Positions 8,745-56,342 of a DNA stretch of 64,000 nt are shown here, in pieces (within the stretch, counting starts at the first letter, position 1; each line of letters opens with the position of its first letter). Origin of the DNA: an uncultured Methanosarcinales archaeon (GTDB lineage Archaea; Nanobdellota; Nanobdellia; Woesearchaeales; GW2011-AR9). A program made the position numbers and the translations under genes. Where the stretch lies: assembly GCA_964527395.1 (NCBI GenBank), contig CAZGQD010000001.1, positions 3,000 to 66,999 of the forward strand. The letters run 5' to 3'. A model generated the notes under the pieces. It saw only the letters and a program-made list of their open reading frames with translations. It did not search any database and had not been told where the DNA came from.

Positions 8745-9022
8745 GAGGGTTTAAATTGGTCAAAACTGTAAAAACGAGCTTTAAATTGGCTAAATCAGTA
8801 AAAATGGCTTCCTTTTGCTCTAAAACGGTCAAAATGATCTTTAAATTGAAAAAAGAGGCTAAAATTGGCTGTTTTTGCTCTAAAACGGTCAAAATGATCT
8901 TTAAATTGAAAAAAGAGGCTAAAATTGGCTGTTTTTGTCCTAAAACGGTCAAAATGATCTTTAAATTGAAAAAGGAGGCAAAAATGACCTCTAAAGTGAA
9001 AAAGAAGGGAAGTGGTTTTGTG
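8745..9022. repeat. Tandem repeat array, 60-bp period (two near-identical units plus degenerate flanking units)
   Basis: Units 8821-8880 and 8881-8940 differ at about one position, and 8941-8985 is a third partial unit. Each contains GGTCAAAAT sub-motifs. The array ends with gaaaaagaagggaagtg followed by a TATA box. Confidence 0.85.
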
Positions 9023-10836: not shown

Positions 10837-10920
10837 TGAAGGTGGTTTAAATTAGTTTTTTATATAAAGATTAGCACTGTCAAACTTTTCGAAATTGTAA
10901 GACAATTTCCAAACCCTCAA

Positions 10921-11026
10921 CGCTTTGCTTATGAGGTTATCGCAGGCGTGACCACTCGCTTTGGATTTTGCTCTTGTTGGTCGCAAAATGCTCGTTAATA
11001 TGGTCTTGTTTTGGATGGGATTGCCA
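10921..11026 (+). repeat. Family A structured repeat, copy A1
   Basis: Core atcgcaggcgtgaccactcgctttggattttgc...gcaaaatgctcgtt...ttgccagtagggga is shared with the copies at 20.3, 21.4 and 25.8 kb. Confidence 0.75.
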
Positions 11027-11098
11027 GTAGGGGACTGTGTTAATCTTTTATTTGTAATTTCTTTTTGTATGTGTTGAGTTTGTCTAGAATTTGGTGGT

Positions 11099-12670
11099 TT
11101 AATTTGTGTTGGTTTTGAATATCTTAAGAGTGCATAGTTTGCCTTCGTACTTTTCTTCATGGATTAAGGTTGCAATTGTTGTAACTTGTGCTTCGAATTC
11201 ATCTAAGGCGTTGCTACATTCTAAATCTTCAAATTTACATAGGAAATCACAGGTTCGGTAGACAATGAAGTCTGCTTCAGGGAGTCTTAGATCTATGACG
11301 GCTTGAGCGAATTTAGGGTTTGCTGTTGTTGGTTTTATGTAAACAGGGAACTCTGAAACGAAAGGGTGGCTAGAGACTATTGTGTCTTGGTATTTAGCTT
11401 CTTGGTTTAGGATATTTTTGGCGTTTTTGATGACTTGGTCCTCTTGGTATAAGTCTTCTTTTAGTTTGTTATCAAAATGGTTGATTGAAGCAGCTATCCA
11501 TAGTGTTAGAAGAAGTGTAACTAAAACAGCTGCTGCTTTTTTGTATTTGATGATCTTTGGAGTGAGTTTGTTATGGTTATTTTTTAGATCTTTGAATCTT
11601 TTAGGGATGTTCCATATCTTGAAGAACATTACTGCTGTTCCTATGCTAAGCCAAGGTAGGAGTAATGTCATGTATCTGATTTCTTTTCTGGCTACGAAAA
11701 ATATGAAGTAAAAGAGAAGTAAGAGTGGGATGATTGTGACTAGAATTTTTTCTGCTAGTTTGTCGTTTTGGTTGAAAATATTTTTTATTGGGTTGTTTTT
11801 TGATGATTTTATTAGTTTGTGTGTGATGTAGACTGTCCAGATTAGGAAAAGGATGTATATTGAGGCTTTATAAAGAAAGGCTTGTAAATAAAATGAAAAG
11901 GCAGTGTCGTAAAGCCAAGTTGAAGTGTTGATAATCCAAGAACCTGATGTGAATGGGAGTAATGGGTTTTGGTATAGTTTTTGGTTGATAGTTAGGAATG
12001 TGATTAGAGGGATTGAGAACCCTGCTCCTAAGGATACTAGATTCTTTAGAAAGGTTTTGATGTCATTTAGGTTGCTTTGGATTAGGTATAGACTAGTTGG
12101 GAGGATTAGTAGGCCTAAGGGGAATTTAGTCATTGCAGCTAAACTTAAGATGAAGCCTGAAAGGAAGAGAGTTGATCTTTTGAATTGGCTGTTATTGTCT
12201 TTTTTAATAAGGAGATGGATTCCAAGTAAGCTTAAGAAAATTGCAAGTGGTTCTGTTAGGAGAAGGCCAGTGTGGATTACAAAAAGAGGGTCTAATGCGA
12301 AGATGAAGCTAGCTAAGAAAGCTGTTTTCTGATCGAAAATCTTGTTTGTTATTTTGTAAACTAGGTAAACTGAAGCTAAGGAAAATATTAGGTTGATGGT
12401 TGTGCCTACAATTATTTGGTTTAGGTTTAAATGAAAAGGGATGGATAAGATTGCTGGAAACAAAAGAGGTCTGAATGATTCCCAAATGCCTAAACCAAAT
12501 GGACCTCCAGTGAAAATAGCTTTACTCATTGCAAGGTAAATGTATGAATCCCACCAAAAGTCGTAATTGTTCGATAAATGAATTAGTCTGGTGATTAAAG
12601 CTATTATTAGGATTAGAATTATGGTTATTTTTGTATACTTGTTGTTTGCTTTTTTTTGATAGTCTTTCAT
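11099..12670 (-). CDS. GT-C fold membrane glycosyltransferase (ArnT/PMT-like, family 39-like)
   Basis: About 12 predicted TM helices, an early WWDSYIY acidic-loop motif, and a soluble C-terminal domain. Confidence 0.6.
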   Translation of the reverse strand: MKDYQKKANNKYTKITIILILIIALITRLIHLSNNYDFWWDSYIYLAMSKAIFTGGPFGLGIWESFRPLLFPAILSIPFHLNLNQIIVGTTINLIFSLASVYLVYKITNKIFDQKTAFLASFIFALDPLFVIHTGLLLTEPLAIFLSLLGIHLLIKKDNNSQFKRSTLFLSGFILSLAAMTKFPLGLLILPTSLYLIQSNLNDIKTFLKNLVSLGAGFSIPLITFLTINQKLYQNPLLPFTSGSWIINTSTWLYDTAFSFYLQAFLYKASIYILFLIWTVYITHKLIKSSKNNPIKNIFNQNDKLAEKILVTIIPLLLLFYFIFFVARKEIRYMTLLLPWLSIGTAVMFFKIWNIPKRFKDLKNNHNKLTPKIIKYKKAAAVLVTLLLTLWIAASINHFDNKLKEDLYQEDQVIKNAKNILNQEAKYQDTIVSSHPFVSEFPVYIKPTTANPKFAQAVIDLRLPEADFIVYRTCDFLCKFEDLECSNALDEFEAQVTTIATLIHEEKYEGKLCTLKIFKTNTN

Positions 12671-18713: not shown

Positions 18714-20237
18714 GTGATGGGAGGAAAAAGAAAGAATTTTGGTTTTTTAGGTTCTTTAAATAAAGATACCGTTCTTTTTTCTTTAGTTGTATTTCTTTTG
18801 CTTTGGAATTTTGCTATAGTGGGAATAAATTTAGGTTTGACTGGTGCAGCTTCAGGAGGAGGTACTGCAAGTCTTTGTGCACAAGTTTTTGTGAATTTAG
18901 AAGCTATTTCTGATCAAGAGATAGTTCATACGTCTGGGTATATCTATAGAGTAAATGCATCTCAACGATTGAGTGATTATAATTATAGTTTTGAGACAAA
19001 TATTAGTTTTATTGATGTAGTTAATATAACATCGAATAGTTCTTTGATTTATTTTACTCCGAATATTTCTATAGTAGGAGAATATCATGTAAATGTTTCT
19101 GCTTTTGATAAAGCAAGTGCATGTCCTTATTATGATGAAGAAACCTTTACTTTGATAATTAATAACTCTGTTCCAGTTTTTAGTGGTACTATTGGTACTG
19201 AAATATGGAATGAAGATACAAGTAATACAGATATTGATTTATCTGATTATTTTAGTGATGATGATGGAGATACAATTACTTATGGTATAGAAGGAGCTGT
19301 AAACATTAGTGCTAGTTTTGTTTCTGGAGCTATGACACTAACGCCTGATACAAATTGGTATGGTAGTGAGACAGTGAATTTTACTGCTAATGATACTATT
19401 AATTTGACTCGTTCTAATGAGGTTTTGCTTGTTGTTGTTGAAACTGCTGCTTTTTGTGGTGATTTAGTTTGTGATTCAGGTGAGACTTGTAGTAGCTGTT
19501 CAGGAGATTGTGGAGCTTGCGCAGCTTCAGGAGGATCTTCTGGTGGTGGAGGAGGAGGAGGATCTTCTTCAAGTGGATCTACTAGTAGTAGTGAAACTTC
19601 AGACTCTGAAAGTGAATCTAGTGAGAGCGAATCTGATTCAAGTACTGAAGAAACTGGAGAAGAAGAATCTACAGAAGAAGCAAGTGATGAAGCTTCTGAT
19701 GAATGTGAATCATCATGGGAATGTACAAATTGGGAACCAACTGATTGTGATGAATCAGGAGTTCAAACACGTTATTGTGTTGATTTGAATAATTGTGGTG
19801 AAGAAAATTTACAAACAGAAGAAAGAGAGTGTGAGACGGGTGAAGAGTCTTTTTATTCAAACGTAGGGGATTGGTTAGATGAACTTTTTGGAGAAAGTGG
19901 TGCTACTGGACTTGCATTGTCTTTTGGAGGAGAAGAAATTAAGGCTGGACCTTTGATTTTAATGATTTTATTTGTGATCGGTCTTTTGGGCTCTTTAGCT
20001 GTTCTTAAGTTTAGAGGTGGAAGGAGAAAAAAGAGGAGTTTTGTTCTATCTCGTGAAAAATTACTTTTTATTCCAGTTGAAGGGAAGGATTATAGTATTG
20101 TGAATGTGATGACTGTAAGTTTAGGTTCTAAAGGGGAGCTAGCTATGAAGTCTGATTTTGTTAGGCATGAGGAGAATGAGGGTCATCCGCCTTGTTTAGA
20201 GCATGAACATGAGAATTCTGAAAAGATTAAGGGATGA
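18714..20237 (+). CDS. Large surface protein: Ig/cadherin-like repeat, Cys-rich modules, Ser/Glu-rich linker, C-terminal TM anchor
   Basis: Contains DIDLSDYFSDDDGDTITY...LTPDTNWYGSETVNFTANDT (adhesin-type domain), CGDLVCDSGETCSSCSGDCGAC, and CESSWECTNWEPTDCDESGVQTRYCVDLNNCG. TM helix LILMILFVIGLLGSLAVL is followed by RGGRRKKR. Confidence 0.6.
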   Translation: MMGGKRKNFGFLGSLNKDTVLFSLVVFLLLWNFAIVGINLGLTGAASGGGTASLCAQVFVNLEAISDQEIVHTSGYIYRVNASQRLSDYNYSFETNISFIDVVNITSNSSLIYFTPNISIVGEYHVNVSAFDKASACPYYDEETFTLIINNSVPVFSGTIGTEIWNEDTSNTDIDLSDYFSDDDGDTITYGIEGAVNISASFVSGAMTLTPDTNWYGSETVNFTANDTINLTRSNEVLLVVVETAAFCGDLVCDSGETCSSCSGDCGACAASGGSSGGGGGGGSSSSGSTSSSETSDSESESSESESDSSTEETGEEESTEEASDEASDECESSWECTNWEPTDCDESGVQTRYCVDLNNCGEENLQTEERECETGEESFYSNVGDWLDELFGESGATGLALSFGGEEIKAGPLILMILFVIGLLGSLAVLKFRGGRRKKRSFVLSREKLLFIPVEGKDYSIVNVMTVSLGSKGELAMKSDFVRHEENEGHPPCLEHEHENSEKIKG

Positions 20238-20269
20238 ATACTTTTTTCTTGATTTTTCTTTGTATTTGA

Positions 20270-20458
20270 GTACGTATTAAGTTACATTTTATATCTGAAG
20301 ACAGTACCGTCAGGCTTACTGCAGGCGTGACTACTTCGCTTTGAATTTTCCAAATCGCTACTTGGAAAAATGCTCGTTGTTTAGGTCTTGTGTTGAATGA
20401 GAGTGCCAGCAAGAGGACGGTGCTGTCTTCATAATAATTAACGTAACTTAATACGTAC
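20270..20458 (+). mobile_element. Family A repeat copy A2 carried on long hairpin arms: perfect 16-bp terminal inverted repeats flanked by an 8-bp direct repeat (MITE-like)
   Basis: gtacgtattaagttac (20270-20285) is the reverse complement of gtaacttaatacgtac (20443-20458). gtatttga occurs immediately outside both ends (20262-20269 and 20459-20466). The core gcaggcgtgactacttcgct...tgccagcaagagg lies between ~41-nt imperfect arms. Confidence 0.7.
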
Positions 20459-20643
20459 GTATTTGAGTTAGTTTTATAAATAAACAGTGTTATGGATAGT
20501 TTTATAGCCGAACTGAACATAAATTGTTTGTTCAGATTGCTGCATGAGGCCAAAAATATTGCAGAAGAGTTTAGATTCGTATTTGTTTCTTGATTCTTTT
20601 GTTTTTTGTGTTTGTAATGTAGCTTTTAGGTTGAATGGAGTGA

Positions 20644-21258
20644 ATGAATATGACAGAAGAAAATGCTGAGAATTTGTTAATTGATTCCAATGAATACTTG
20701 AAAACAGGAGTACATATTGGAACTAAATTTAAAACAAAATATATGAAGAACTTTATCTATAAGACAAGACCTGATGGACTTAGTGTTCTTAATTTGCAGA
20801 AAATTGATGAAAGATTGCGTATTGCAATTAACTTTTTATCACAGTATGATGCAAAAGATATTTTGTTTGTTTGTAGACGAGAAAATGGGTGGAGAGCTCT
20901 TCGTAAATTAAAGAAATTCACAGGTATTAATGTGATTAATGGACGTTATCCACCAGGAATACTTACAAATACAAATTTAGAGACTTTTATTGAACCAAAA
21001 GTAATGTTTGTATGTGACCCTTGGCCAGACAAAAACGCTGTTGTAGATGCAGGAAAAGCAGGAATTCCAGTTGTGGCACTTTGTGATACTAACAATGAGT
21101 CAAACAATGTAGATTTAGTTATTCCAGCTAACAACAAAGGTAAAAAATCAGTTGGATTATTGCTATATTTGATTGCACGTGAATATTTACGAGCAAAAGG
21201 AGTTTTGAAGGCAGAAGATGAGCCTGAATTTAAACCTGAAGACTTTATGGAAGAGTAG
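20644..21258 (+). CDS. rps2: 30S ribosomal protein uS2
   Basis: YLKTGVHIGTKFKTKYMKNFIYKTRPDGLSVLNLQKIDERLR and VCDPWPDKNAVVDAGKAGIPVVALCDTN are typical of archaeal S2. Confidence 0.9.
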   Translation: MNMTEENAENLLIDSNEYLKTGVHIGTKFKTKYMKNFIYKTRPDGLSVLNLQKIDERLRIAINFLSQYDAKDILFVCRRENGWRALRKLKKFTGINVINGRYPPGILTNTNLETFIEPKVMFVCDPWPDKNAVVDAGKAGIPVVALCDTNNESNNVDLVIPANNKGKKSVGLLLYLIAREYLRAKGVLKAEDEPEFKPEDFMEE

Positions 21259-21348
21259 ATTTGCTTGAAATATAGTGATTTATTGATTATTTTTTCTTGT
21301 TTTTTTGATATTCTTAATGACTTTTAGATGATTTTTCATTCTGTTGTA

Positions 21349-21524
21349 GAGAATTGTGGGTATCAGACTTAACTTCAAGCAAGCTTTCGGAACTTAGTTC
21401 ACATGTTCACTAAGTATCGCAGGCGTGACCACTTCGCTGTGATTTTTCCACTTTGTGAAAAAATGCTCGTTGTTTAGGTCTTTTGTTGGAGGGGAGTGCC
21501 AGTGAGGAGATACCCACAATTCTC
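21349..21524 (+). repeat. Family A structured repeat, copy A3, closed by a perfect 16-bp copy-specific helix
   Basis: gagaattgtgggtatc (21349-21364) pairs with gatacccacaattctc (21509-21524). Core atcgcaggcgtgaccacttcgctgtgatttttcc...gaaaaaatgctcgtt...gtgccagtgagga. Confidence 0.8.
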
Positions 21525-21740
21525 TTGGTGGATGAGGTTTTTTAAAGGTATTTTGAGGCTTTTGATCTTTTTTGGTTTAATTTGGGCTTTTGTTGCTTTT
21601 GGGTTAGGGTCTTTGTCCTTTGTGAGGGCTAGTGTGGGTTTTTAGCTTAAATCAGGCGAAATCTTTATAAAGCAAGTGGGCTCGAATGGCCTATACAGCA
21701 AATTCGCTCTAAATGTGGGTTTTGGCTGGAAAATTAGAAA

Positions 21741-23589: not shown

Positions 23590-23790
23590 GAATCGGGAGA
23601 AATGAAGGTGCTTTTTGGCTAAATCGATAATATTTGCTTTCTTTTGGTCTAAAACGGTAATTTTGAGCTTCTTTTTGGTTTTAATGGTAAAAATGAGCTC
23701 TATTTGGCAAAAGGAGGTCAAAATTGTCTGCTTTTGGTGTTTAGCGGTCAAAATTGCCTGCAAATTGAAAAAGAAGGGAAGTGTTTTAGA
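23590..23790. repeat. Degenerate repeat array related to 8745-9022 (GGTCAAAAT-type units), ending with the same gaaaaagaagggaagtg motif before a TATA box
   Basis: ggtctaaaacggtaattttgagc, ggtcaaaattgtctgc and ggtcaaaattgcctgcaaattgaaaaagaagggaagtg resemble units of the 8.8-kb array. Confidence 0.65.
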
Positions 23791-24645: not shown

Positions 24646-25290
24646 TTAACTAGCATCTACTATTGAATCTATCGTTGCATATGTAGTTGAGTAAGTAGGT
24701 TGAGGTATTGGCTGAGGAGCTAAGGAATCAACTTTTTCTTTGACCCGATTGTATGCTGTTTTCCAAGCAGAATCTTTTTGAAGGAGTTTTGGATCAGTTT
24801 CTTTGATATACATGGAAGAAGCTAATGCAATTAGGCCAAGACCATATTGAAGCTGATCATAGCTTTTTGGATCTATTGGTTCTCCATGTTTTAGTTTTTG
24901 GTATAAATCTACTAAGAATGTTCCTGTAAAACCTAAACCTGCTGTGAAAACTGGAAGCCTTGTAGAAGAATTGAGTTTTTTATAAATGAAAGTTTTAGGA
25001 TCAATTGAAAGTTGTGGATTTTGTGTTTCATTATCGATTTGATCAGTGGCTCCTTCAAAGTTATGACCAAAATCGAATATATTTATTCCAAGTCTTAAAG
25101 GGATTGTGGTCCCAAATAATTTATCTTCAGCTAAAGCGCATAATAAAAGTCCAGATAACCATACAGGACATGCAGCTAAATATCTTCTATTTCCTTTATC
25201 TAGTTTTAGTTTTTTAGCTACTTTAGTATATTGTCTAAGAACTTGTTCGTCTAACCATTTTGCTGGTTTTAGTAGTTTTTCTAAGGACAT
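24646..25290 (-). CDS. Hypothetical membrane protein
   Basis: Several hydrophobic segments. No family recognised. Confidence 0.5.
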   Translation of the reverse strand: MSLEKLLKPAKWLDEQVLRQYTKVAKKLKLDKGNRRYLAACPVWLSGLLLCALAEDKLFGTTIPLRLGINIFDFGHNFEGATDQIDNETQNPQLSIDPKTFIYKKLNSSTRLPVFTAGLGFTGTFLVDLYQKLKHGEPIDPKSYDQLQYGLGLIALASSMYIKETDPKLLQKDSAWKTAYNRVKEKVDSLAPQPIPQPTYSTTYATIDSIVDAS

Positions 25291-25317
25291 TTTGTTTATT
25301 TTTGTTTGATGGTTAGT

Positions 25318-25635
25318 TTAATATTTCCATTTACTGTGGCCGAAGGCTATGAATAAATCGAAACCTTTGACGTTTGGAGTGTCACAAGCACCATAACAGT
25401 CTCCTGCCCAGAATGTGATGTTTAAAGTAGGGATTGCTTTTAGAAGTTCTTCTTGGATTTTGTTTGCTTTTGGTTTTAAGCCGTCTGGAAGTTGAATTAG
25501 AACTGTTTTAGGATTCTTGGAAACAGAGTTTCCAGACGCAAAATTAGAAGATTTTGCATTTTCTTCTTTGATTTTTTCTATAGCTTTGTCTAGCTCTAGG
25601 TTCAATTCTAAGTGAGTTTTGATTGCTTCTGACAT
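25318..25635 (-). pseudogene. dph2: Diphthamide synthase Dph2, N-terminal ~100 aa only (truncated or split), with a 14-aa repeat-element insertion
   Basis: AK..KTVLIQLPDGLKPKANKIQEELL...GDCYGACDTP...FDLFIAFGHS matches domain 1 of archaeal Dph2 (AKRVLIQSPEGL...YGACD...LIHLGHS). The ORF stops right after GHS, whereas Dph2 is normally ~330 aa. Confidence 0.6.
25514..25560 (+). repeat. Family B double-hairpin element inside the Dph2 fragment (in frame)
   Basis: ttcttggaaacagagtttccagacgcaaaattagaagattttgca has hairpin 1 ggaaac/gtttcc and hairpin 2 gcaaaat/attttgc. It corresponds to the extra SSNFASGNSVSKNP. Confidence 0.75.
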
Positions 25636-25752: not shown

Positions 25753-25879
25753 CTTTACGCTCATCAGACTTAGTGCAGGCGTGACCACTGCGCTGTGATT
25801 TTGCTTCCGTTGGTCACAAAATGCTTGTTGTTAGTTAGATGTGTTGAGTGGGATTGCCAGTAAGGAGATGAGCGTGCAG
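25753..25879 (+). repeat. Family A structured repeat, copy A4
   Basis: Outer helix ctttacgctcatc / gatgagcgtgcag. Core agacttagtgcaggcgtgaccactgcgctgtgattttg...caaaatgcttgtt...ttgccagtaagga. Confidence 0.8.
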
Positions 25880-33889: not shown

Positions 33890-35833
33890 GTGATAACAGA
33901 ATCTAGAGATAATCCAATTAGAAGGGAAAAATATCAAAAAATAGTAACACAAACTCCTTCTCATATAGATACTTATTTGGTTACTACATTTACTGATTAT
34001 GGTACATTGTCTAGTTTGATTAGTGAAATTGGTTTTAGTGCAGTTCAATTGAATGTTGATGCTAGAAAAGGTTCTGGACAAATAGAAGATATTTCAATTG
34101 AAGATATTCAAAAATTGAGAGAAAATTTTCCTGATTTGAAAATAGTTAAGGGAATTGTAATAAATTATGAGGTTGAAAAAGGAGTTAGTCCAATTGAGTA
34201 TGGCGAGAGATTTCTACCTTATGTGGATAATGTTCTTTTAGATGCAGTATCTGTTGATGATAGTGGAAGATTACTTTTCATGGAAACTGAGGGTTTCCAG
34301 ACGCTGCTCTCAGCAGCACATGGAGGAACAGGGATTACATTAGATTGGGATGATTGTAGAAGATTTGTTGATCAATATGGTTTTGATGCTAATAATTCCA
34401 GACAAGTAATCTTAGCAGGGGGTCTAAATAGGCATAATGTTCAAGAAGCAGCAGCAAAAACAGGAGTTATGGGAGTTGATGTACAATCAGGAGTTGGAAA
34501 GTGGAGAAAGGATTATTTGTTACTTGAAGATTTTCTAAAAAATGCTAAGAGTAGGGAAGCTCAGAGAAGAGTAACAACTGGAATGACATTTAAGGATTTA
34601 GCTGAAAATTTGCCGGTTTTACCTAGACAACACCTATTTAGAGAAAGAGAAGAGTACTTAAGTTCAATTTCTGATTTAGAAACATTCAGAAGAGCTCTTT
34701 ATTTTTCACAAAGAACTGATGCTGTTGGAAGACCAAGAATTAATGAGGAAGAATGGGGAAGAGTAGCTTCTAAGTTAGGAGATTTGGCTGATATTGTTGA
34801 AAGAAATACAGCAAGACATGCAGGAGATGTAGTATTCAGGTCGAATAATTATTTCTTAGGACATACACTATTTGGAATATTTGGAGAAGAAGCAAAAAAA
34901 GAAGGAGAAAAAGTTGCAAGCGAAATTGATTTAAGATTTAAAGAAAATGAGGGTTTGATAGCTAAATTAGCTTCAAAAGGAGAAATTTCTAGGGATATTA
35001 ACTTACAAATACCTATATTTAGTGTTTTAGATCATCAAAAGCAGTACGCATTACTTTTAATGAAGAATGTATATACTGCAATGAGAAAGGCTGATAAAGC
35101 TGGAAAAAGACCTGATGAGGTAATAAGTAGAGAAGATTTTGATACTTTATTTCAATTATGTCAAGATACAGTTTCAGTTGCATATAGGTTTATTCTTACT
35201 GGAGAGGTTATTCCAATTGATTATAAAAGTGATTTTGTTGAAAAACTCACAAACAAGTTAGAATTTAGTGATTGGAAAGATTCTTGGAGAGAAATGGATG
35301 ACCCTGCTAAAATTCTTTTATATACTATAAATGCTATGCAAAATCTTGAAAGAGAAGTAGATTTGATAGTAAATCCTTTCTCAGGAGGGATGGAGTTAGG
35401 GTATGCTTTTAGAGGAATTACTGCAGCTTTAGGAAAGGATGTTGTTAGAGATGTTTTGCTGCTGAAGTTTTCAATGCATGGTGATGGAGATGACTTAGTT
35501 GATTATCCAAAAGAGCAATGGTTTGAAAAACTTGTAAGTGGAGGGATTCCAAGATTAATAAGAGATGAGGCAAGAGGAAAATTATTGGTTAATCATGGAT
35601 TAATAATTGATGATAATACTACTTCTAAAAGTACACTAGCACAAATTAGAGAAGCTGTTACTAGTAAGGGAATTAATCAAGGAAGATATGGGATATGTGC
35701 TATTGAAATAGGAAGGTTAGATAAAGTGAATTTTGATGAAACAATTCTTACTGATTTAGAATTTGAAGCGATAGGTGATAGGATGAGTGAAAAGCATAAA
35801 ACTGGATTAGTAGCAGAATCTCTTAAAATATGA
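33890..35833 (+). CDS. Fusion protein: PRAI (TrpF)-like TIM barrel, central helical region, C-terminal type I phosphoribosyltransferase domain
   Basis: GGTGITLDWDD...VILAGGLNRHNVQEAA...GVDVQSGVG are TrpF C-terminal motifs, and GLIIDDNTTSKSTLAQI is the type I PRT PRPP-binding loop. Same frame as the 33755 fragment. Confidence 0.7.
   Translation: MITESRDNPIRREKYQKIVTQTPSHIDTYLVTTFTDYGTLSSLISEIGFSAVQLNVDARKGSGQIEDISIEDIQKLRENFPDLKIVKGIVINYEVEKGVSPIEYGERFLPYVDNVLLDAVSVDDSGRLLFMETEGFQTLLSAAHGGTGITLDWDDCRRFVDQYGFDANNSRQVILAGGLNRHNVQEAAAKTGVMGVDVQSGVGKWRKDYLLLEDFLKNAKSREAQRRVTTGMTFKDLAENLPVLPRQHLFREREEYLSSISDLETFRRALYFSQRTDAVGRPRINEEEWGRVASKLGDLADIVERNTARHAGDVVFRSNNYFLGHTLFGIFGEEAKKEGEKVASEIDLRFKENEGLIAKLASKGEISRDINLQIPIFSVLDHQKQYALLLMKNVYTAMRKADKAGKRPDEVISREDFDTLFQLCQDTVSVAYRFILTGEVIPIDYKSDFVEKLTNKLEFSDWKDSWREMDDPAKILLYTINAMQNLEREVDLIVNPFSGGMELGYAFRGITAALGKDVVRDVLLLKFSMHGDGDDLVDYPKEQWFEKLVSGGIPRLIRDEARGKLLVNHGLIIDDNTTSKSTLAQIREAVTSKGINQGRYGICAIEIGRLDKVNFDETILTDLEFEAIGDRMSEKHKTGLVAESLKI
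34277..34323 (+). repeat. Family B double-hairpin element, second copy inside the TrpF-like gene (open, in frame)
   Basis: ttcatggaaactgagggtttccagacgctgctctcagcagcacatgg has hairpins ggaaac/gtttcc and gctgc/gcagc. It lengthens the segment between LLD and GGTG relative to typical TrpF. Confidence 0.7.
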
Positions 35834-40266: not shown

Positions 40267-42456
40267 CTACTCCAGCGGTACGCCAGTCCAAAGTGTCCAA
40301 TCTTCTGAAGGAGAGTAAGAACCGAAGACGAAGTAAGGAGGATGACCTTGACCCATATGGTTGTAATGAATAGCGCTCCATTTCTTGCCGCCGTAACCTG
40401 TGAAACCTTTGCCAGTACCAGTTACGTGAGCTCCGAAAAGATCCCAGGTTTTTTGGACACTACGCCAACCACCTTGATCAAGAGTGAAGTCTGCACCAGG
40501 TTCTACGATTAATTCGCCATCGTAGCCGTTTTCTTTAAGAATTTCAACCATTCTCTTGATTGGAGCAATACCTTCGCCTGGAGCTAAATGTTCGTCTTGG
40601 TAGCCGTAATTATCATCTAAGTGAACGTGACCTACAACATCTGCTTTAGCTAGCTTTTCTGTCATATCTAGCATCCAACCTTGAAATATTTTATTGTTTT
40701 CGTCTGGAGATTTTGAGGTGTCGTCTTTGAAGTATTTACGCCACATGTTCATATGACCAACATCGAATGTCATGGAAATGGTTTTTCTAGCAGCTTGTTT
40801 AGCTTTTTCATCGTTATAACCAAAAGCAGCTTGGAGTTGTTTTGCCATGGATTTTCTAGAATTTGTAACTAGTTCAATAATTTCGTCAGGGTGAGCACCG
40901 TGAGCTTCTGGAAAGAGGTTTTCCATTGCAACCATAAGGTTCTTTTTTAGTTTTCCTTTGCTTTTTAGTTGTTCACTTTGACGCCAAGCAAATACGCCTG
41001 CTTGACCATAAGCATCGTATGCTTCTTGAAGAGCGTAAGTTCTACCACTTTGAATGTTTCTTGCAGTTTCCATTTGTTCTTCTGATTGTGACCATTGTCC
41101 AGCAGCTGCATCTTGAGCTTGGTTTATGGCAGATTTGATGTTTTGCATCTCTTTTTCAATAATTGCAGTAGGCATTTTTTTGTCAGGAGTTACTAAGCCT
41201 AATTGTTCAGATTGGAGTGCAGTTACTTGTTTTTCGTATCTCCATTTTTCTTCTGGACTTGTTGCTTCTTCTATTTTTTTGTAGAGTTCTTTTGCTTCTT
41301 TTAGTTTTTTGAGTCTTTGAATATTCTCTTCATAATCTCTAGAATATTGGAAAGCGAAAGCTCTGGAGTTAGCTGCGTTTGTTTCTAAGGAAGATATGAT
41401 ATAAGCTTCTTCAGGCATAACTTTGACATCTTCTACTGATTCTGCGTCTTTGAATCTATACCAAAGGTCAGATTTCCATTTAGGGTTATTTTTGTCTTTT
41501 TGGTATTCTTTCCAGAAATGTTTTGCATCTTTAGTCATTTCTTTTGCTTCTATTTCAAGGTCAGGCCAGCCTAATTGTTCAATTTTAAAGATGTTGTTTT
41601 TCTTGTCCCAAACAGGGATTCTGTTAGCTCTTTCTAATTTATTTCCCCAATAATCAATATAGTCTCCTCTTCTCACTGTGTTACCATGTTCGTCAGTGTA
41701 GGAGTCTTTTTTACCTTGCTTATCCCATTGATCATCAGTTTCACTATACCTTTTCCAAACAGGACGACTAATTGTTTTTCCTTTCCTTGCTTGTTGTACG
41801 ATTGAGCCTGTTCTAGTGTCAATTATATCGTAAGTTCCACGTTTTTCTTCTTCATCGTACATCTCGAATCTACCTTTCCATTTACCTTTAGTGTTCCAAT
41901 CTGCGTCACTTACTGGACGGTTAAATTCTCCAGTATGTACTACAACTGGACCACCTTCAGCAACATCTGCTGCGAACTCAATTGCACGTTTGATCTCTTG
42001 AATTGACATAACTTTTTGTTCTTTTGAGAAGTTACCTTGACGATCTTTACCAGCAAGTCCAGCTACACCTACACTAGTGTGTAAGGTCCAATCTACTCTG
42101 TTTGCTCGAGCTTTTTCTCTTAATGCTTGACGTTGTTTTTTACCGTACATACCAGCAGTATGGCCTTGACCGGAACCTTTACCCATACCAAAAAAACCTA
42201 ATTCTAATACTTTTTGTCCAGAATGAATTTTACTCATAGTTGCTGGTAAATTTGGTACTGGACCTAAACCAAAACTCATACCAAAATCACCTGCGGAAAC
42301 TCCTACATCACCTGTAGCTTTTGGGCTTCCATGATCATGTCCGCAATCGTGACCACCACCACCTGAGCTATGTCCATGACCATGATCGCCTTCTCTGTCC
42401 ATAGAACTAGCGTAACCTGTTTCGAATTCAAAATTATTATTACCAAATACAACCAT
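40267..42456 (-). CDS. Xylose-isomerase-like (AP endonuclease 2 family) TIM-barrel protein split by a ~370-aa insertion, with a His/Gly-rich N-terminus
   Basis: N-half has WTLHTSVG and GGPVVVHTGEF. C-half has MTFDVGHMNMW, VGHVHLDDNYGYQDEHLAPGEGIAPIKRMVEILKENGYDGELIVEPG. N-terminal GDHGHGHSSGGGGHDCGHDHG. Confidence 0.6.
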   Translation of the reverse strand: MVVFGNNNFEFETGYASSMDREGDHGHGHSSGGGGHDCGHDHGSPKATGDVGVSAGDFGMSFGLGPVPNLPATMSKIHSGQKVLELGFFGMGKGSGQGHTAGMYGKKQRQALREKARANRVDWTLHTSVGVAGLAGKDRQGNFSKEQKVMSIQEIKRAIEFAADVAEGGPVVVHTGEFNRPVSDADWNTKGKWKGRFEMYDEEEKRGTYDIIDTRTGSIVQQARKGKTISRPVWKRYSETDDQWDKQGKKDSYTDEHGNTVRRGDYIDYWGNKLERANRIPVWDKKNNIFKIEQLGWPDLEIEAKEMTKDAKHFWKEYQKDKNNPKWKSDLWYRFKDAESVEDVKVMPEEAYIISSLETNAANSRAFAFQYSRDYEENIQRLKKLKEAKELYKKIEEATSPEEKWRYEKQVTALQSEQLGLVTPDKKMPTAIIEKEMQNIKSAINQAQDAAAGQWSQSEEQMETARNIQSGRTYALQEAYDAYGQAGVFAWRQSEQLKSKGKLKKNLMVAMENLFPEAHGAHPDEIIELVTNSRKSMAKQLQAAFGYNDEKAKQAARKTISMTFDVGHMNMWRKYFKDDTSKSPDENNKIFQGWMLDMTEKLAKADVVGHVHLDDNYGYQDEHLAPGEGIAPIKRMVEILKENGYDGELIVEPGADFTLDQGGWRSVQKTWDLFGAHVTGTGKGFTGYGGKKWSAIHYNHMGQGHPPYFVFGSYSPSEDWTLWTGVPLE

Positions 42457-42654
42457 CCTAAAGTTTGATTATGAGAAGATGTATATTAATGTATCTTTGA
42501 ATGAAGTTAATGGTGCAAAGAATCAAGTTCCAAAAAATTATGCATCAAAGACCCTAAATACAAAGAATCATGACTCAAGGCCTATAGAAACAAAAAAACC
42601 AATAAAAAAGATTTAACTTTTAGATAATACAACTACAAATACTTCAGTTACAAA

Positions 42655-42806
42655 GACTCCAAAGAAAATGTGTGGGGGGCGTAAAGTGCAGAACAAGAAC
42701 ATATTAGTAAGATCAAACGACCCGAAGTGACCAAATGGAGCGAGCGTGGAGAAGAGCCTTTTCGCTAATCGCCCCCATCGAGCAACGTGAGATTTTCTTT
42801 GGAGTC
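42655..42806 (-). repeat. Family L element, short copy in inverted orientation, closed by a perfect 15-bp helix
   Basis: gactccaaagaaaat (42655-42669) pairs with attttctttggagtc (42792-42806). Inner ggggggcg/cgccccc helix. The reverse complement shares ggggcga, aggctcttctccacg and gatc.. segments with 7151-7414. Confidence 0.65.
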
Positions 42807-42865
42807 TAAAAGAAGGTTATTTTGTACTTAAATTTTTTATAAAAAGCTATTTTTGAAGGAAAAAT

Positions 42866-53260: not shown

Positions 53261-54597
53261 GTAATGTCATTTACACATTCTTCTGTTTCTTGAGCGTAAT
53301 GTTCAGCAGCACCTGCAGCAGCTTCAGCAATTTGAACATATCTTTCAACTCTGGAGTTTGCTTCTTGTGCTTCATTTAATTCTTCATCTGTTGGACCATC
53401 TGAAGGGTCAGGTTCAGGTTCTTCTGGATTTCTTGTATCATTATCATCAGGGTCACTTGGGAAACCAGGTTGTCTTATTCCTCTACCAATTGGTCTTTTA
53501 GCTCTTGGAGGAGTTCTTGATCTGTCTGGGTCATCATCATTTCCTGGTGGAGTCCTTCTACGTCTTCCTCTAGGCGGGTTAGGTCCTCTTGTACCGTCTT
53601 CATTGTCATCATCCTCACCAGGGTTGCTTTGATCTCCAGGTTGTCTTATGTTCCTATTATCGCCTCTTCTTCTGCCCCTTCTAGGGTTTGGGTTTCTTGA
53701 ACCGTCTGGGTCATCATCTTCATGATCGTCATTTGGTGGAGTTCTTCTTCTTCTTTCTCGACCAGCATCTGAACTGTTGTCTCTTGGATCGCTACCTCTT
53801 CTACCAGATCTTCCATCTCTGGAACCATTAGATGCATCTGAACCGTCTGCTCCATCTCTACCATCAGCGCCATCCCTACCGTCAGCTCCATCTCTTGCAT
53901 TATTGTTTGGAGGTAATTGTTCTTCATCTCCCATGTCTCTGACAATGATTTCGTTAGCTTTTTTGATGAAGTCGTCAATTTGGTCTATAATATAAGCACA
54001 AAAGTCTTCAACTTTTTTGATATTTGCTTGTAATGTAGTTACTTTTCTTCTGTAACTGTTAGCAGTAGCTTTTGGAATCTTTTTATGGCAATGTTTTACG
54101 TAGAATTCTAAGGCATGGTCACAAAGAGTGTGAACAGCTGAAAGGGCTTTATTAATTGGATCTCTAGTTAGTCTATGTGAAACTCTTACATTCCTTCTAG
54201 CTTCTTGTAATTTGTTTCTAATCCTGCTGGAAAGAGATTTTGCTTCATTCGTAGTTGAATCATCTTTCTTTTTAGATAGAACTTCAGTTCTTAATTCACG
54301 ACAAAGAGCGATAACTTCTAAAAGTTTTCTTTTTGCAATCATAAGATATTTCTTACGCATTTCTAATTTGTCTTTTTTTTTTTTTGTCTTTTTTCTTTTT
54401 TTGTTCCACTTTTTGAAGTCTTTTTCAGCTTGTTTTGCTTTTTCTTCTTTTTCATTTTTTTCTGCTTGAGTTTCGAATGATAAGAATTGGAAGAAATACC
54501 AAGCTGTGGCTAAAAAAGCAAAACCAATAGCTACATGTAAGAACTCAACTACTGTACCCCCCACTACCAGAAAGCCTATTAATTCCTCTGCTGTCAT
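53257..54597 (-). CDS. Membrane-hairpin protein, paralog A: TM hairpin, Lys-rich segment, helical domain, long R/D/G/N/P low-complexity tail, short helical C-terminus
   Basis: Start placed at MTAEELIGF by homology with 55425..56342. The first ~222 aa are nearly identical to the paralog. The tail has RDGADG x3 and two ~50-aa RRRRTPP...IRQPG modules. Confidence 0.55.
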   Translation of the reverse strand: MTAEELIGFLVVGGTVVEFLHVAIGFAFLATAWYFFQFLSFETQAEKNEKEEKAKQAEKDFKKWNKKRKKTKKKKDKLEMRKKYLMIAKRKLLEVIALCRELRTEVLSKKKDDSTTNEAKSLSSRIRNKLQEARRNVRVSHRLTRDPINKALSAVHTLCDHALEFYVKHCHKKIPKATANSYRRKVTTLQANIKKVEDFCAYIIDQIDDFIKKANEIIVRDMGDEEQLPPNNNARDGADGRDGADGRDGADGSDASNGSRDGRSGRRGSDPRDNSSDAGRERRRRTPPNDDHEDDDPDGSRNPNPRRGRRRGDNRNIRQPGDQSNPGEDDDNEDGTRGPNPPRGRRRRTPPGNDDDPDRSRTPPRAKRPIGRGIRQPGFPSDPDDNDTRNPEEPEPDPSDGPTDEELNEAQEANSRVERYVQIAEAAAGAAEHYAQETEECVNDIT

Positions 54598-55424: not shown

Positions 55425-56342
55425 TTAGTCTTCTCCTCTTCTATTATTAGCAGGTCTTCGTCTTACAATTGCTGCTGGTCTTCCAGGTCTATTTGTATTT
55501 CTTGCTCTTGAATCGTTTGTGCCATTTGTTTCGTCGTTTCCATTTCTGCCATTTCTACTGTTAGTTCCGTTCCTATCATCAGCTCCATCAGTACCATCTC
55601 TTCCGTTGTTCCCATCATCTGTGTCGTTATCAGATCCACTTCTATTGTTGCCTGGAGGAACTGTTTCTTCACCATCCATATCTCTTACAGTGATTTCGTT
55701 AGATTTTTTGATGAAATTGTCAATTTCTCTTACAATATAAGCACAATAATCTTCAACTTTTTTGATATTTGCTTGTAGTGTAGTTACTTTTCTTCTGTAA
55801 CGGTTAGCAGTGGCTTTTGGAATCTTTTTATGGCAATGTTTTACGTAGAATTCTAAAGCATGGTCACAAAGAGTGTGAACAGCTGAAAGGGCTTTATTAA
55901 TTGGATCTCTAGTTAGTCTATGTGAAACTCTTACATTCCTTCTAGCTTCTTGTAATTTGTTTCTAATCCTGCTGGAAAGAGATTTTGCTTCATTTGTAGT
56001 TGAATCATCTTTCTTTTTAGATAGAACTTCAGTTCTTAATTCACGGCAAAGAGCGATTACTTCCAAAAGTTTTCTTTTTGCAATCATAAGATACTTTTTA
56101 CGCATTTCAAGTTCGTCTTTTTTCTTTTTTGTCTTTTTTCTTTTTTTGTTCCACTTTTTGAAGTCTTTTTCAGATTTTTTGGCATTTTCTTCTTTTTCAT
56201 TCTTTTCTTCTTGAGTTTCGAATGATAAAAACTGAAAGAAATACCAGGCTGTGGCTAAAAAAGCAAAACCGATAGCTACATGTAAGAACTCAACTACTGT
56301 GCCTCCTACTACTAGAAAGCCTATTAATTCCTCTGCTGTCAT
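55425..56342 (-). CDS. Membrane-hairpin protein, paralog B (shorter N/G/R/D-rich tail)
   Basis: About 0.67 kb (55675-56342) is near-identical to 53930-54597. Confidence 0.55.
   Translation of the reverse strand: MTAEELIGFLVVGGTVVEFLHVAIGFAFLATAWYFFQFLSFETQEEKNEKEENAKKSEKDFKKWNKKRKKTKKKKDELEMRKKYLMIAKRKLLEVIALCRELRTEVLSKKKDDSTTNEAKSLSSRIRNKLQEARRNVRVSHRLTRDPINKALSAVHTLCDHALEFYVKHCHKKIPKATANRYRRKVTTLQANIKKVEDYCAYIVREIDNFIKKSNEITVRDMDGEETVPPGNNRSGSDNDTDDGNNGRDGTDGADDRNGTNSRNGRNGNDETNGTNDSRARNTNRPGRPAAIVRRRPANNRRGED

Follow-up and report, generated by a model that had tools for sequence, protein, structure and literature searches.

Family A, a lineage-restricted and helix-enclosed structured repeat with changing ends in woesearchaeal DNA

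Introduction

DPANN archaea have tiny genomes, and reports of repeat families or non-coding RNAs from them are, to our knowledge, few so far. The DNA analysed here is a 64,000-nt stretch from an uncultured archaeon of this group (the window), in which one conserved core recurs between genes, each time inside a closing helix. The locus raises the question of what kind of element keeps its fold while the sequences at its ends change completely, and whether such an element would be a gene, a regulator, or a piece of mobile DNA. The repeats, called Family A, are real and beyond chance. The description that suits them best is that of a new structured repeat, restricted to one lineage and enclosed by a helix, the arms of which are co-evolving or have been exchanged.

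Source DNA and genomic setting

The window has a GC content of 34% and encodes archaeal genes including aEF1A, a diphthamide synthase fragment, RadA, and ribosomal protein S2, as identified with Pfam. The S2 protein of the source organism is 71-76% identical to those of named Woesearchaeota and Nanoarchaeota relatives, and 86% identical to that of the best relative. The + strand is rich in G and T across more than 82 kb, with a GC skew of +0.24 to +0.34. This strand asymmetry covers positions 1-64000 of the window and 9 kb on either side, is accompanied by an AT skew of about -0.1, and also holds at 11-15 kb, where the genes are on the minus strand. Some spacers of the window are nearly without C on the + strand, and their skew reaches 0.8.

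The window belongs to contigs of 112-146 kb that were recovered several times over from marine metagenomes (JGI 3300007754, JGI 3300008954, ENA SUTE22-1, and Logan SRR8062322). The strains of the source population are 99.8-100% identical, and all five Family A copies described below come from this one population. The strain comparison found zero variation inside the elements, and neither insertion polymorphism nor excision was seen in it.

Copies of the repeat

The sequence GCAGGCGTGACYACT lies at 10942, 20321, 21419, and 25775 on the + strand (at least five matches occurred in 0 of 100 shuffles). The sequences AAAATGCTYGTT and GAKTGCCAGYRRG are found at the same four places, and the spacing between them is constant at 29 nt. 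The three conserved blocks co-occur exactly four times in the window, all on the + strand and far above shuffle expectation, and the corresponding copies, A1 to A4, align well and all lie between called genes. The first-pass annotation had proposed four intergenic copies on the + strand, and both the block matches and the called genes confirm it.

It had also suggested a covariance model (CM) scan. Two such models were built from the copies, and one was run with filters off. The scans detected five copies in ~83 kb of contiguous DNA and no further ones, the window itself holding only A1-A4. The additional copy, A5, is more divergent and lies ~9 kb beyond the end of the window. The features are as follows.

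10866-11048, + strand: A1 complete; its arms close the MFE fold, and its CM score is 115 bits
10866-10881, 10887-10937, 10938-11032, and 11033-11048, + strand: left arm, extra segment, core, and right arm of A1, with the junction AAACT between the left arm and the extra segment
10887-10937, + strand: the A1 expansion segment (51 nt, two local hairpins), at the same internal site as the A3 expansion
20262-20269, + strand: left copy of the 8-bp direct repeat GTATTTGA, abutting the A2 outer inverted repeat
20270-20458, + strand: A2 with its outer shell, which consists of an outer perfect 16-bp inverted repeat, 10- and 11-nt spacers, and the inner element
20270-20285 and 20443-20458, + strand: the A2 outer inverted repeat GTACGTATTAAGTTAC, perfect over 16 bp
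20296-20431, + strand: the A2 inner element, with arms at 20296-20311 and 20416-20431 and the core at 20312-20415
20459-20466, + strand: right copy of the 8-bp direct repeat GTATTTGA
21348-21525, + strand: A3, with arms at 21348-21364 and 21509-21525, the junction AGACT, a 45-nt expansion at 21370-21414, and the core extending to 21508
25757-25875, + strand: A4, with arms at 25757-25765 and 25867-25875 and the core at 25766-25866
~72,969-73,107 in window numbering (L037:127-265(-)), + strand: A5, a CM match between AstE and HisRS

The elements are 119-189 nt long. A1 had been recognised earlier as a copy, and correctly so; its true extent, with both arms, is 10866-11048, and the 51-nt extra segment lies between its left arm and its core.

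The genes next to the copies encode S2, aEF1A, a glycosyltransferase, a kinase, the RimK operon, AstE, and HisRS. A2, A3, and A5 lie 30-90 nt past the stop codon of a gene on the same strand and upstream of S2, aEF1A, and HisRS, respectively. A1 is antisense, between two minus-strand genes, and runs of T follow A1 and A3. A protein-coding role was rejected, as the copies differ by 1-nt indels and by loop lengths that are not multiples of three. The minus-strand ORFs at 10852-11160 and 20227-20553 that overlap copies are not called genes.

Closing helices

The closing helices were counted outward from the conserved junction. A3 has 17 of 17 Watson-Crick pairs (21348-21364 with 21509-21525), one more than the 16 bp reported earlier. 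A5 is closed by 17 Watson-Crick pairs and one G.U pair, and the inner element of A2 by 16 and one, besides its separate perfect 16-bp outer repeat. The nine pairs of A4 are all Watson-Crick, and its helix can be extended with wobbles and mismatches. A1 pairs over 16 positions (10866-10881 with 11033-11048), comprising 14 Watson-Crick pairs, one G.U pair, and one mismatch. A run of at least nine Watson-Crick pairs between random positions at the same spacing has P ~2e-5. Moreover, Family A arms make up three of the four inverted repeats in the window that are at least 16 nt long, lie within 400 nt, and are at least 94% complementary. The helices at A2, A3, and A4 had been noticed before; A1, taken then for the unclosed one of the four, is closed too. 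Owing to the 51-nt intervening segment, the left arm is found 56 nt upstream of the core, and it had been overlooked. A5, outside the window, is helix-closed as well.

The closing arms had been described as unrelated to each other. That holds for A3 and A4, the arms of which are unrelated to one another and to the rest. Homology does link the arms of A1, inner A2, and A5, which have nine inner positions in common (..AGYACYGTC / GACKGTGYT..), and the five copies thus fall into three unrelated arm sets. The loci of A1 and A5 are distinct, and the arms of these two copies are 88% identical over 16 nt. At position 13, an A-U pair in A5 is a G-C pair in A1, and at position 16 a G-C pair in A5 is an A-U pair in A1; both sides have changed and the pair is kept each time. 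Two further changes between these arms are one-sided and result in G.U or U.U. All five copies have a palindromic junction, either ATC|GAT or GTC|GAC.

The arms and the cores tell different histories. A1 and A5 have the arms that are most alike, at 88% identity, and the cores that are least alike, at 66-70%, whereas the 5' cores of A3 and A4 are 91% identical and their arms unrelated. As judged from these comparisons, arm and core histories are discordant, so that simple unit-wise copying would not be sufficient, and recombination, gene conversion, or arm exchange between copies would have to be invoked. Arm sequences without a core were not found in ~93 kb of the organism's own DNA.

Flanking duplications and partner genes

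The GTATTTGA direct repeats exactly adjoin the outer repeat of A2 and measure 8 bp, or 10 bp if the first two bases of the outer repeat are counted. An exactly adjacent direct repeat of at least 8 nt has P ~2e-4 under the null. The arrangement looks like a target-site duplication, the classical signature of cut-and-paste insertion. A2 with its outer shell has an MFE of -73.8 kcal/mol (z = -8.5). The 16-bp outer repeat occurs nowhere else in the DNA examined, so that A2 may represent a Family A unit that lies within a different small element or was captured by one. At the other copies, the flanking duplications are TAT at A1, TAAT at A5, and none at A3 and A4, and none of them is significant. 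The left flanks of the copies have no common 5' target motif beyond a T.

The search for a partner gene comprised Pfam scans of ~30 larger ORFs of the window and the precomputed Pfam hits of the called genes in the examined loci. Transposases, RAYT/TnpA, TnpB, integrases or recombinases, and reverse transcriptases were absent from the ORFs and genes scanned. The Pfam scans of the ~30 larger window ORFs gave no nuclease candidate as a partner.

Core anatomy and fold

All copies share one layout. It begins with the left arm ending in RTC, followed by AGRCT, an optional expansion of 45-51 nt, TA-NN, and the 5' strand of helix P2 (GC-A-GGCG). The middle consists of ~17 nt including GACYACU, the hairpin P3, and GCUYGUU with a G/U-rich conserved stretch. 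The 3' part comprises the 3' strand of P2 (UGCC-A-GYR), AGRR, and the right arm beginning with GAY. The cores are 63-79% identical among the copies. The helices lie at the following positions.

21418-21425 with 21497-21504, + strand: helix P2 of A3 (YGC-A-GGCG with UGCC-A-GYR)
10941-10948 with 11022-11029, 20320-20327 with 20404-20411, and 25774-25781 with 25855-25862, + strand: the equivalents of P2 in A1, A2, and A4
21442-21464, 10965-10989, 20344-20371, and 25798-25822, + strand: inner hairpin P3 in A3, A1, A2, and A4

In P2, 97% of the cells over the five copies are paired. One of its pairs is swapped from U-A to C-G, and at three more a change on one side leaves the pair intact (G.U to G-C, C-G to U.G, and G.U to A-U). 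For the whole core structure, 92.6% of the cells are paired, versus 41-50% if the partners are slid by 1-3 columns. Covariation in the core is thin, with double changes at only two pairs, and the support for the core fold is accordingly modest; the strong structural evidence comes from the arms and the P3 tip. A further predicted core helix, P4 (CUCGUU/AAUGAG), was rejected, as just three of its six pairs are kept in A5. An alternative register at the base of the core, CUUASUG/CAGYAAG, is favoured in A5. The junction of arms and core is an asymmetric internal loop of ~8 x 4 nt.

The base of P3, AUUUU/AAAAU, is constant in all copies. Its tip is copy-specific and always pairs, as GC/GC, CCAA/UUGG, CAC/GUG, and G/C in the window and ACUG/CAGU in A5, and the covariation of the inner hairpin that had been claimed from four copies thus extends to all five. 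The expansions of A1 and A3 occupy the same internal site and are not homologous, as their local alignment is no better than that of shuffles; neither segment matches anything else in the DNA examined. The first-pass annotation had favoured a maintained fold over a decaying transposon. Cores of 63-79% identity with perfect or near-perfect arms, the compensated swaps, and the P3 tips agree with it, and from these alignments a maintained fold is the better explanation of the data.

Strand and base composition

All five copies are on the G/T-rich strand, which by analogy with bacteria is the strand exposed as the lagging-strand template. With five copies on one replichore (two-sided P ~0.06), their single orientation relative to the strand asymmetry is only suggestive. 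The arms contain three wobbles, each of which is G.U when read in the + sense and would be an A.C mismatch in the minus sense; the pattern is ambiguous, as the strong C-to-T bias of this genome on the + strand would produce it as well. Folding z-scores differ little between the strands, being dominated by the helices.

The elements have a GC content of 0.39-0.48 and a GC skew of 0.11-0.26, compared with 0.25-0.34 and 0.38-0.80 in the surrounding spacers. They are thus either young or shielded from the C-depleting bias by the need to pair, and their composition fits recent arrival or constraint.

These data bear on a reading of Family A as neutral debris left by an extinct inverted-repeat transposon, in which the perfect arms would have arisen by template-switch correction of quasi-palindromes and not by selection. 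Such correction can mimic compensatory change, and the small number of copies, their lack of polymorphism, and the failure to see a partner gene are what debris would leave. However, the arms are separated by 100-150 nt, a long distance for template switching, the P3 tips covary as well, the core is much better conserved than the ends, and the elements have resisted the bias that stripped C from neighbouring spacers. Neutral debris is therefore very unlikely.

Distribution and empty sites in relatives

The scans with both CMs of ~70 kb of DNA from relatives with 75-86% identical S2 gave no copy, loci of five further relatives included, even where the gene order is conserved. Two orthologous sites could be compared directly. 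At the A2 site of the relative with the 86% identical S2 (L031), the gene upstream of S2 is a homologue of the Big-domain protein of the window (E = 1e-9), and the spacer is 161 nt long versus 406 nt here. The S2-proximal block aligns, and the spacer contains neither A2 nor any palindrome. At the A5 site of a second relative (L050), AstE is 63% identical and the N-terminus of HisRS is identical at 27 of 31 positions. The AstE|HisRS spacer measures 33 nt versus 207 nt here; it can be aligned to the sequence that flanks A5 on the right, and contains neither A5 nor the A5 arms.

Rfam at gathering thresholds gave 0 matches over the whole window, within Family A or elsewhere, and in E-value mode the interval 20200-21700 matched only eukaryotic families, far below threshold. 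The earlier remark that the repeat resembles no known RNA family is upheld by both scans. The gapped pattern CAGGCGTGAC..AAATGCT..TGCCAG was scanned against GTDB genomes, JGI metagenomes, and IMG/VR, collections that do not contain the source contigs themselves, and yielded only chance hits in unrelated DNA, mostly bacterial and of higher GC. A looser version of the pattern gave only chance hits in IMG/VR. The IMG/VR loci were re-scored with model R2, which found nothing, and for the hits in genomes and metagenomes the assessment relied on visual inspection and GC content. A blastn search with A3 had no match among plasmids and phages.

Since the two orthologous sites are empty and without a hairpin, the arms and the core look like insertions, and the simplest reading of the alignments is that they would have been gained together in this lineage; loss in the relatives instead of gain here is the formal alternative. 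One option raised at the start was an element that inserts into pre-existing hairpins. In that plain form it is not supported, in view of the lack of a palindrome at both empty sites and of the absence of core-less arms from ~93 kb of the organism's own DNA. A weaker form, in which the core may have entered palindromic elements inserted earlier, is left by the discordant arm and core histories and by the nested shell of A2.

If the core alone were mobile, the segment AGRCTTA...AGRR would insert at the centre of RTC|GAY palindromes, possibly themselves earlier palindromic insertions. Insertion sequences that target hairpins exist, e.g., IS1397 and members of the IS110 family. The palindromic junction of all five copies and the discordant histories agree with such targeting, as does A2, which can be viewed as a palindromic element of 85 nt that is flanked by an 8-bp repeat of its own and interrupted precisely in the middle. 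In contrast, ~93 kb of the organism's own DNA contains no unoccupied palindrome that bears any of the arm sequences, and both empty sites in the relatives lack a hairpin. Moreover, the compensated A1/A5 swaps indicate that the arms evolve under pairing constraint and are not passive target halves. Mobility of the core alone is, on balance, quite unlikely.

The empty sites also affect the reading of Family A as a cis-regulatory leader, or as a 3'-UTR stabiliser or terminator, of translation-related genes (S2, aEF1A-S10, the RimK operon, and HisRS). The position of A2, A3, and A5 between a same-strand stop codon and such a gene is what this reading draws on, together with the T-runs after A1 and A3. 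However, the relatives compared have no element upstream of S2 and HisRS, the TATA box of aEF1A separates A3 from that gene, the neighbours of A1 are not on its strand, and a regulator would have no need of five diverged arm sets. A cis-regulatory role is highly improbable.

Transcription and RNA motifs

Direct reading of the sequence found no promoter-like motif at a fixed distance upstream of the copies. The TATA box beside A1 sits 27 nt upstream of a divergent kinase gene, and that of aEF1A stands between A3 and aEF1A. Read-through transcription of three copies is plausible because they lie 30-90 nt after a same-strand stop codon. Several known RNA motifs were considered and rejected. GA dinucleotides fit a K-turn in just three of the five copies. 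No box C/D or H/ACA pattern is conserved across the copies, and no ACA follows the stem. A bulge-helix-bulge (BHB) motif is absent from the closing helix and from its inner end, the helix of A3 consisting of 17 uninterrupted pairs; this absence bears on the other option raised at the start, an RNA that would be excised at a processing stem.

The main competitor of an insertion element is a family of host small-RNA genes, in which the copies would be transcribed, processing or stabilisation would depend on the stem formed by the closing helix, and the conserved single-stranded core would bind a protein or a target RNA. Variable stems set against conserved junctions and loops, and an expansion site tolerated in A1 and A3, agree with such genes. 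The copies are also GC-rich islands within AT-rich spacers, and four of the five are on the strand of the next downstream gene. Furthermore, a second and unrelated helix-enclosed element occurs at 42654-42807, so stems of this kind may be general among the RNAs of this genome. On the other hand, Family A is absent from both orthologous sites checked and from the ~70 kb of relatives' DNA scanned with the CMs, a pattern that a functional RNA in a reduced genome would not usually show. The other points against it are the antisense placement of A1 between two minus-strand genes, the lack of a fixed-distance promoter motif (the TATA box at A1 belonging to the divergent kinase gene), and the lack of a conserved box C/D, H/ACA, or K-turn pattern and of a BHB. 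Five paralogues that are 21-37% diverged would also be odd for a single function. A small-RNA gene family is, for these reasons, considered somewhat unlikely.

Comparison with known elements

MITEs: Like Family A, MITEs are small, non-coding, intergenic, and multi-copy, have terminal inverted repeats (present in all five copies here), and are absent from orthologous sites. The likeness is closest at A2, where the outer shell has a 16-bp inverted repeat and an 8-bp flanking duplication. However, the inverted repeats of MITEs are conserved and match a parent IS, whereas in Family A the ends vary and the core is conserved; no parent IS with Family A ends was found in ~93 kb. MITEs also have a flanking duplication of fixed length at every copy, and in Family A the only significant one is at A2, those at the other four copies being non-significant or absent.

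REPINs: These are non-autonomous hairpin elements in which compensatory changes that keep the hairpin-forming capacity are common, and they are proposed to move as single strands via RAYT transposases (PMC3116915). Family A likewise consists of non-autonomous extragenic hairpin units with pairing kept by compensatory change, as in the A1/A5 swaps and the P3 tips. In contrast, REPINs are bacterial, with conserved REP ends, a variable spacer, and a simple hairpin, and Family A has the opposite layout and a branched core. REPINs have a cognate RAYT, a Y1 HUH transposase, and none was seen among the window ORFs and the called genes of the examined loci that were scanned.

ERIC, Correia, and RPE-type repeats: These are imperfect palindromes that are co-transcribed with their neighbours and fold in RNA. 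Some ERIC variants have insertions at fixed internal sites, similar to the expansions of A1 and A3. Unlike Family A, these repeats are bacterial, palindromic throughout, and conserved in sequence from end to end.

IS200/IS605-derived elements and integron attC sites: Both are recognised as folded single strands, have a replication-linked orientation bias, and tolerate sequence change provided that the fold persists. Family A lacks the conserved 5' target tetranucleotide, the subterminal pair of LE and RE hairpins, and the R and L boxes. It has one closing helix and not two end hairpins as in IS200/IS605-derived elements, and no TnpA or IntI gene was seen near its copies.

Archaeal processing stems: Pre-rRNA and circular RNAs of archaea are processed at stems with bulge-helix-bulge motifs. 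In these, as in Family A, the flanks pair into a long helix around a structured RNA. The Family A arms do not have the motif of a 3-nt bulge, 4-bp helix, and 3-nt bulge.

Retrons: The msr-msd ncRNA of retrons is a structured RNA closed by flanking inverted repeats of variable sequence (a1/a2). Unlike retrons, no copy of Family A is adjoined by a reverse transcriptase, and the family consists of five dispersed archaeal copies.

By analogy, Family A would work most like the bacterial hairpin-forming non-autonomous repeats, and its logic seems closest to that of MITEs and REPINs. It fails to qualify as a MITE, a REPIN, or an IS200/IS605 derivative, given its variable ends and conserved core, its inconsistent flanking duplications, and the lack of a cognate enzyme in the DNA scanned.

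Other features of the window

Element at 42654-42807: The two ends of a single-copy intergenic element of 154 nt, AGACTCCAAAGAAAAT / ATTTTCTTTGGAGTCT, form a perfect inverted repeat of 16 bp that closes it, and a GGGGGCG...CGCCCCC stem lies inside. The element matches nothing in Rfam, lacks a second copy, and may be an unrecognised RNA gene with a processing stem. ARAGORN detected no tRNA gene in the 64-kb window.

Other repeats: A second repeat family consists of the hairpin motif TTCATGGAAACCAAGGCTTTCCAGACGC followed by ATAAT..TTTTGCA, at 2935, 7283, 8619, 33838, and 34277, all on the + strand, and some of its five copies are inside long ORFs. Tandem repeats of 60 nt occupy 8762-9018 and 23591-23787 in small + strand ORFs, with related units 14.8 kb apart. 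A 300-nt duplication (53894-54193 and 55639-55938) is 90% identical, extends to ~700 nt at 93% by blastn, and sits inside two neighbouring minus-strand genes without an assigned function.

Block upstream of S2: A conserved block at 20520-20600, also present at 550-620 of L031, carries a CTGCA...TGCAG hairpin in the arrangement GCTGCATGAGGC-AAAAA-CTGCAGA..ATTC-TATTTGTT. It lies ~60-120 nt upstream of the S2 start codon and is common to the relative with 86% identity; a role as S2 leader or promoter-proximal element is conceivable.

Unusual genes: The diphthamide synthase gene at 24646-25635 (-) looks split or truncated, as its 105-aa ORF matches profile positions 1-56 of 302 and the adjoining 214-aa ORF has no Pfam match. 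The genes at 33890-35833 (+) and 40267-42456 (-) encode proteins of 647 and 729 aa, each with a match to a Pfam enzyme domain (PRAI, AP_endonuc_2) over only ~80-100 residues, and may be fused, interrupted, or highly diverged.

Interpretation

The reading that we favour, at slightly less than an even chance, is that Family A is a lineage-restricted, non-autonomous, structure-constrained mobile or insertion element that acts as a folded single strand. It draws on the presence of five copies in one lineage, the empty orthologous sites, arms that do not occur without the core in ~93 kb of the organism's own DNA, and pairing that is kept despite divergence. The anatomy, the maintained pairing, the single orientation, and the absence from the two orthologous sites checked in relatives are read directly from the alignments; mobility as a unit and recognition as a single strand are what we infer.

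According to this insertion-element model, the whole unit would have entered intergenic DNA, that is, the terminal arms, the junctions (RTC|AGRCTTA ... GCCAGYRAGRR|GAY), and the ~100-nt core. Its active form would be either the + strand RNA or the + strand DNA exposed during replication. The shape that would be kept consists of a closing helix that is 9-18 bp long and unconstrained in sequence, a short conserved P2, a P3 with a free tip, and one tolerated expansion site, and the single-stranded junction and core sequences would be kept besides the shape. A trans-acting factor that copies or moves the unit would then read the stem and the conserved junction, and not the terminal sequence.

A broader claim is that Family A represents an undescribed archaeal mobile element, or mobile RNA gene, recognised by its shape, namely an arbitrary stem, a conserved junction, and a three-way core. 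We regard this claim as rather unlikely. If recognition by shape were true, the ends would be free to co-evolve or to be exchanged between copies, and the element would spread via a single-stranded intermediate on the strand that replication exposes, in a DPANN genome of extremely asymmetric strands.

Implications

The covariance model can be used to survey marine Woesearchaeota bins, and the two empty sites give exact insertion boundaries. Family A keeps its fold while its ends change completely, and the two orthologous sites compared in the nearest relatives sampled lack it; it would thus be either a shape-recognised mobile element or a young RNA gene family. Either way, it offers a route to study how such genomes gain DNA, and to the enzyme that would read a stem together with its junction.
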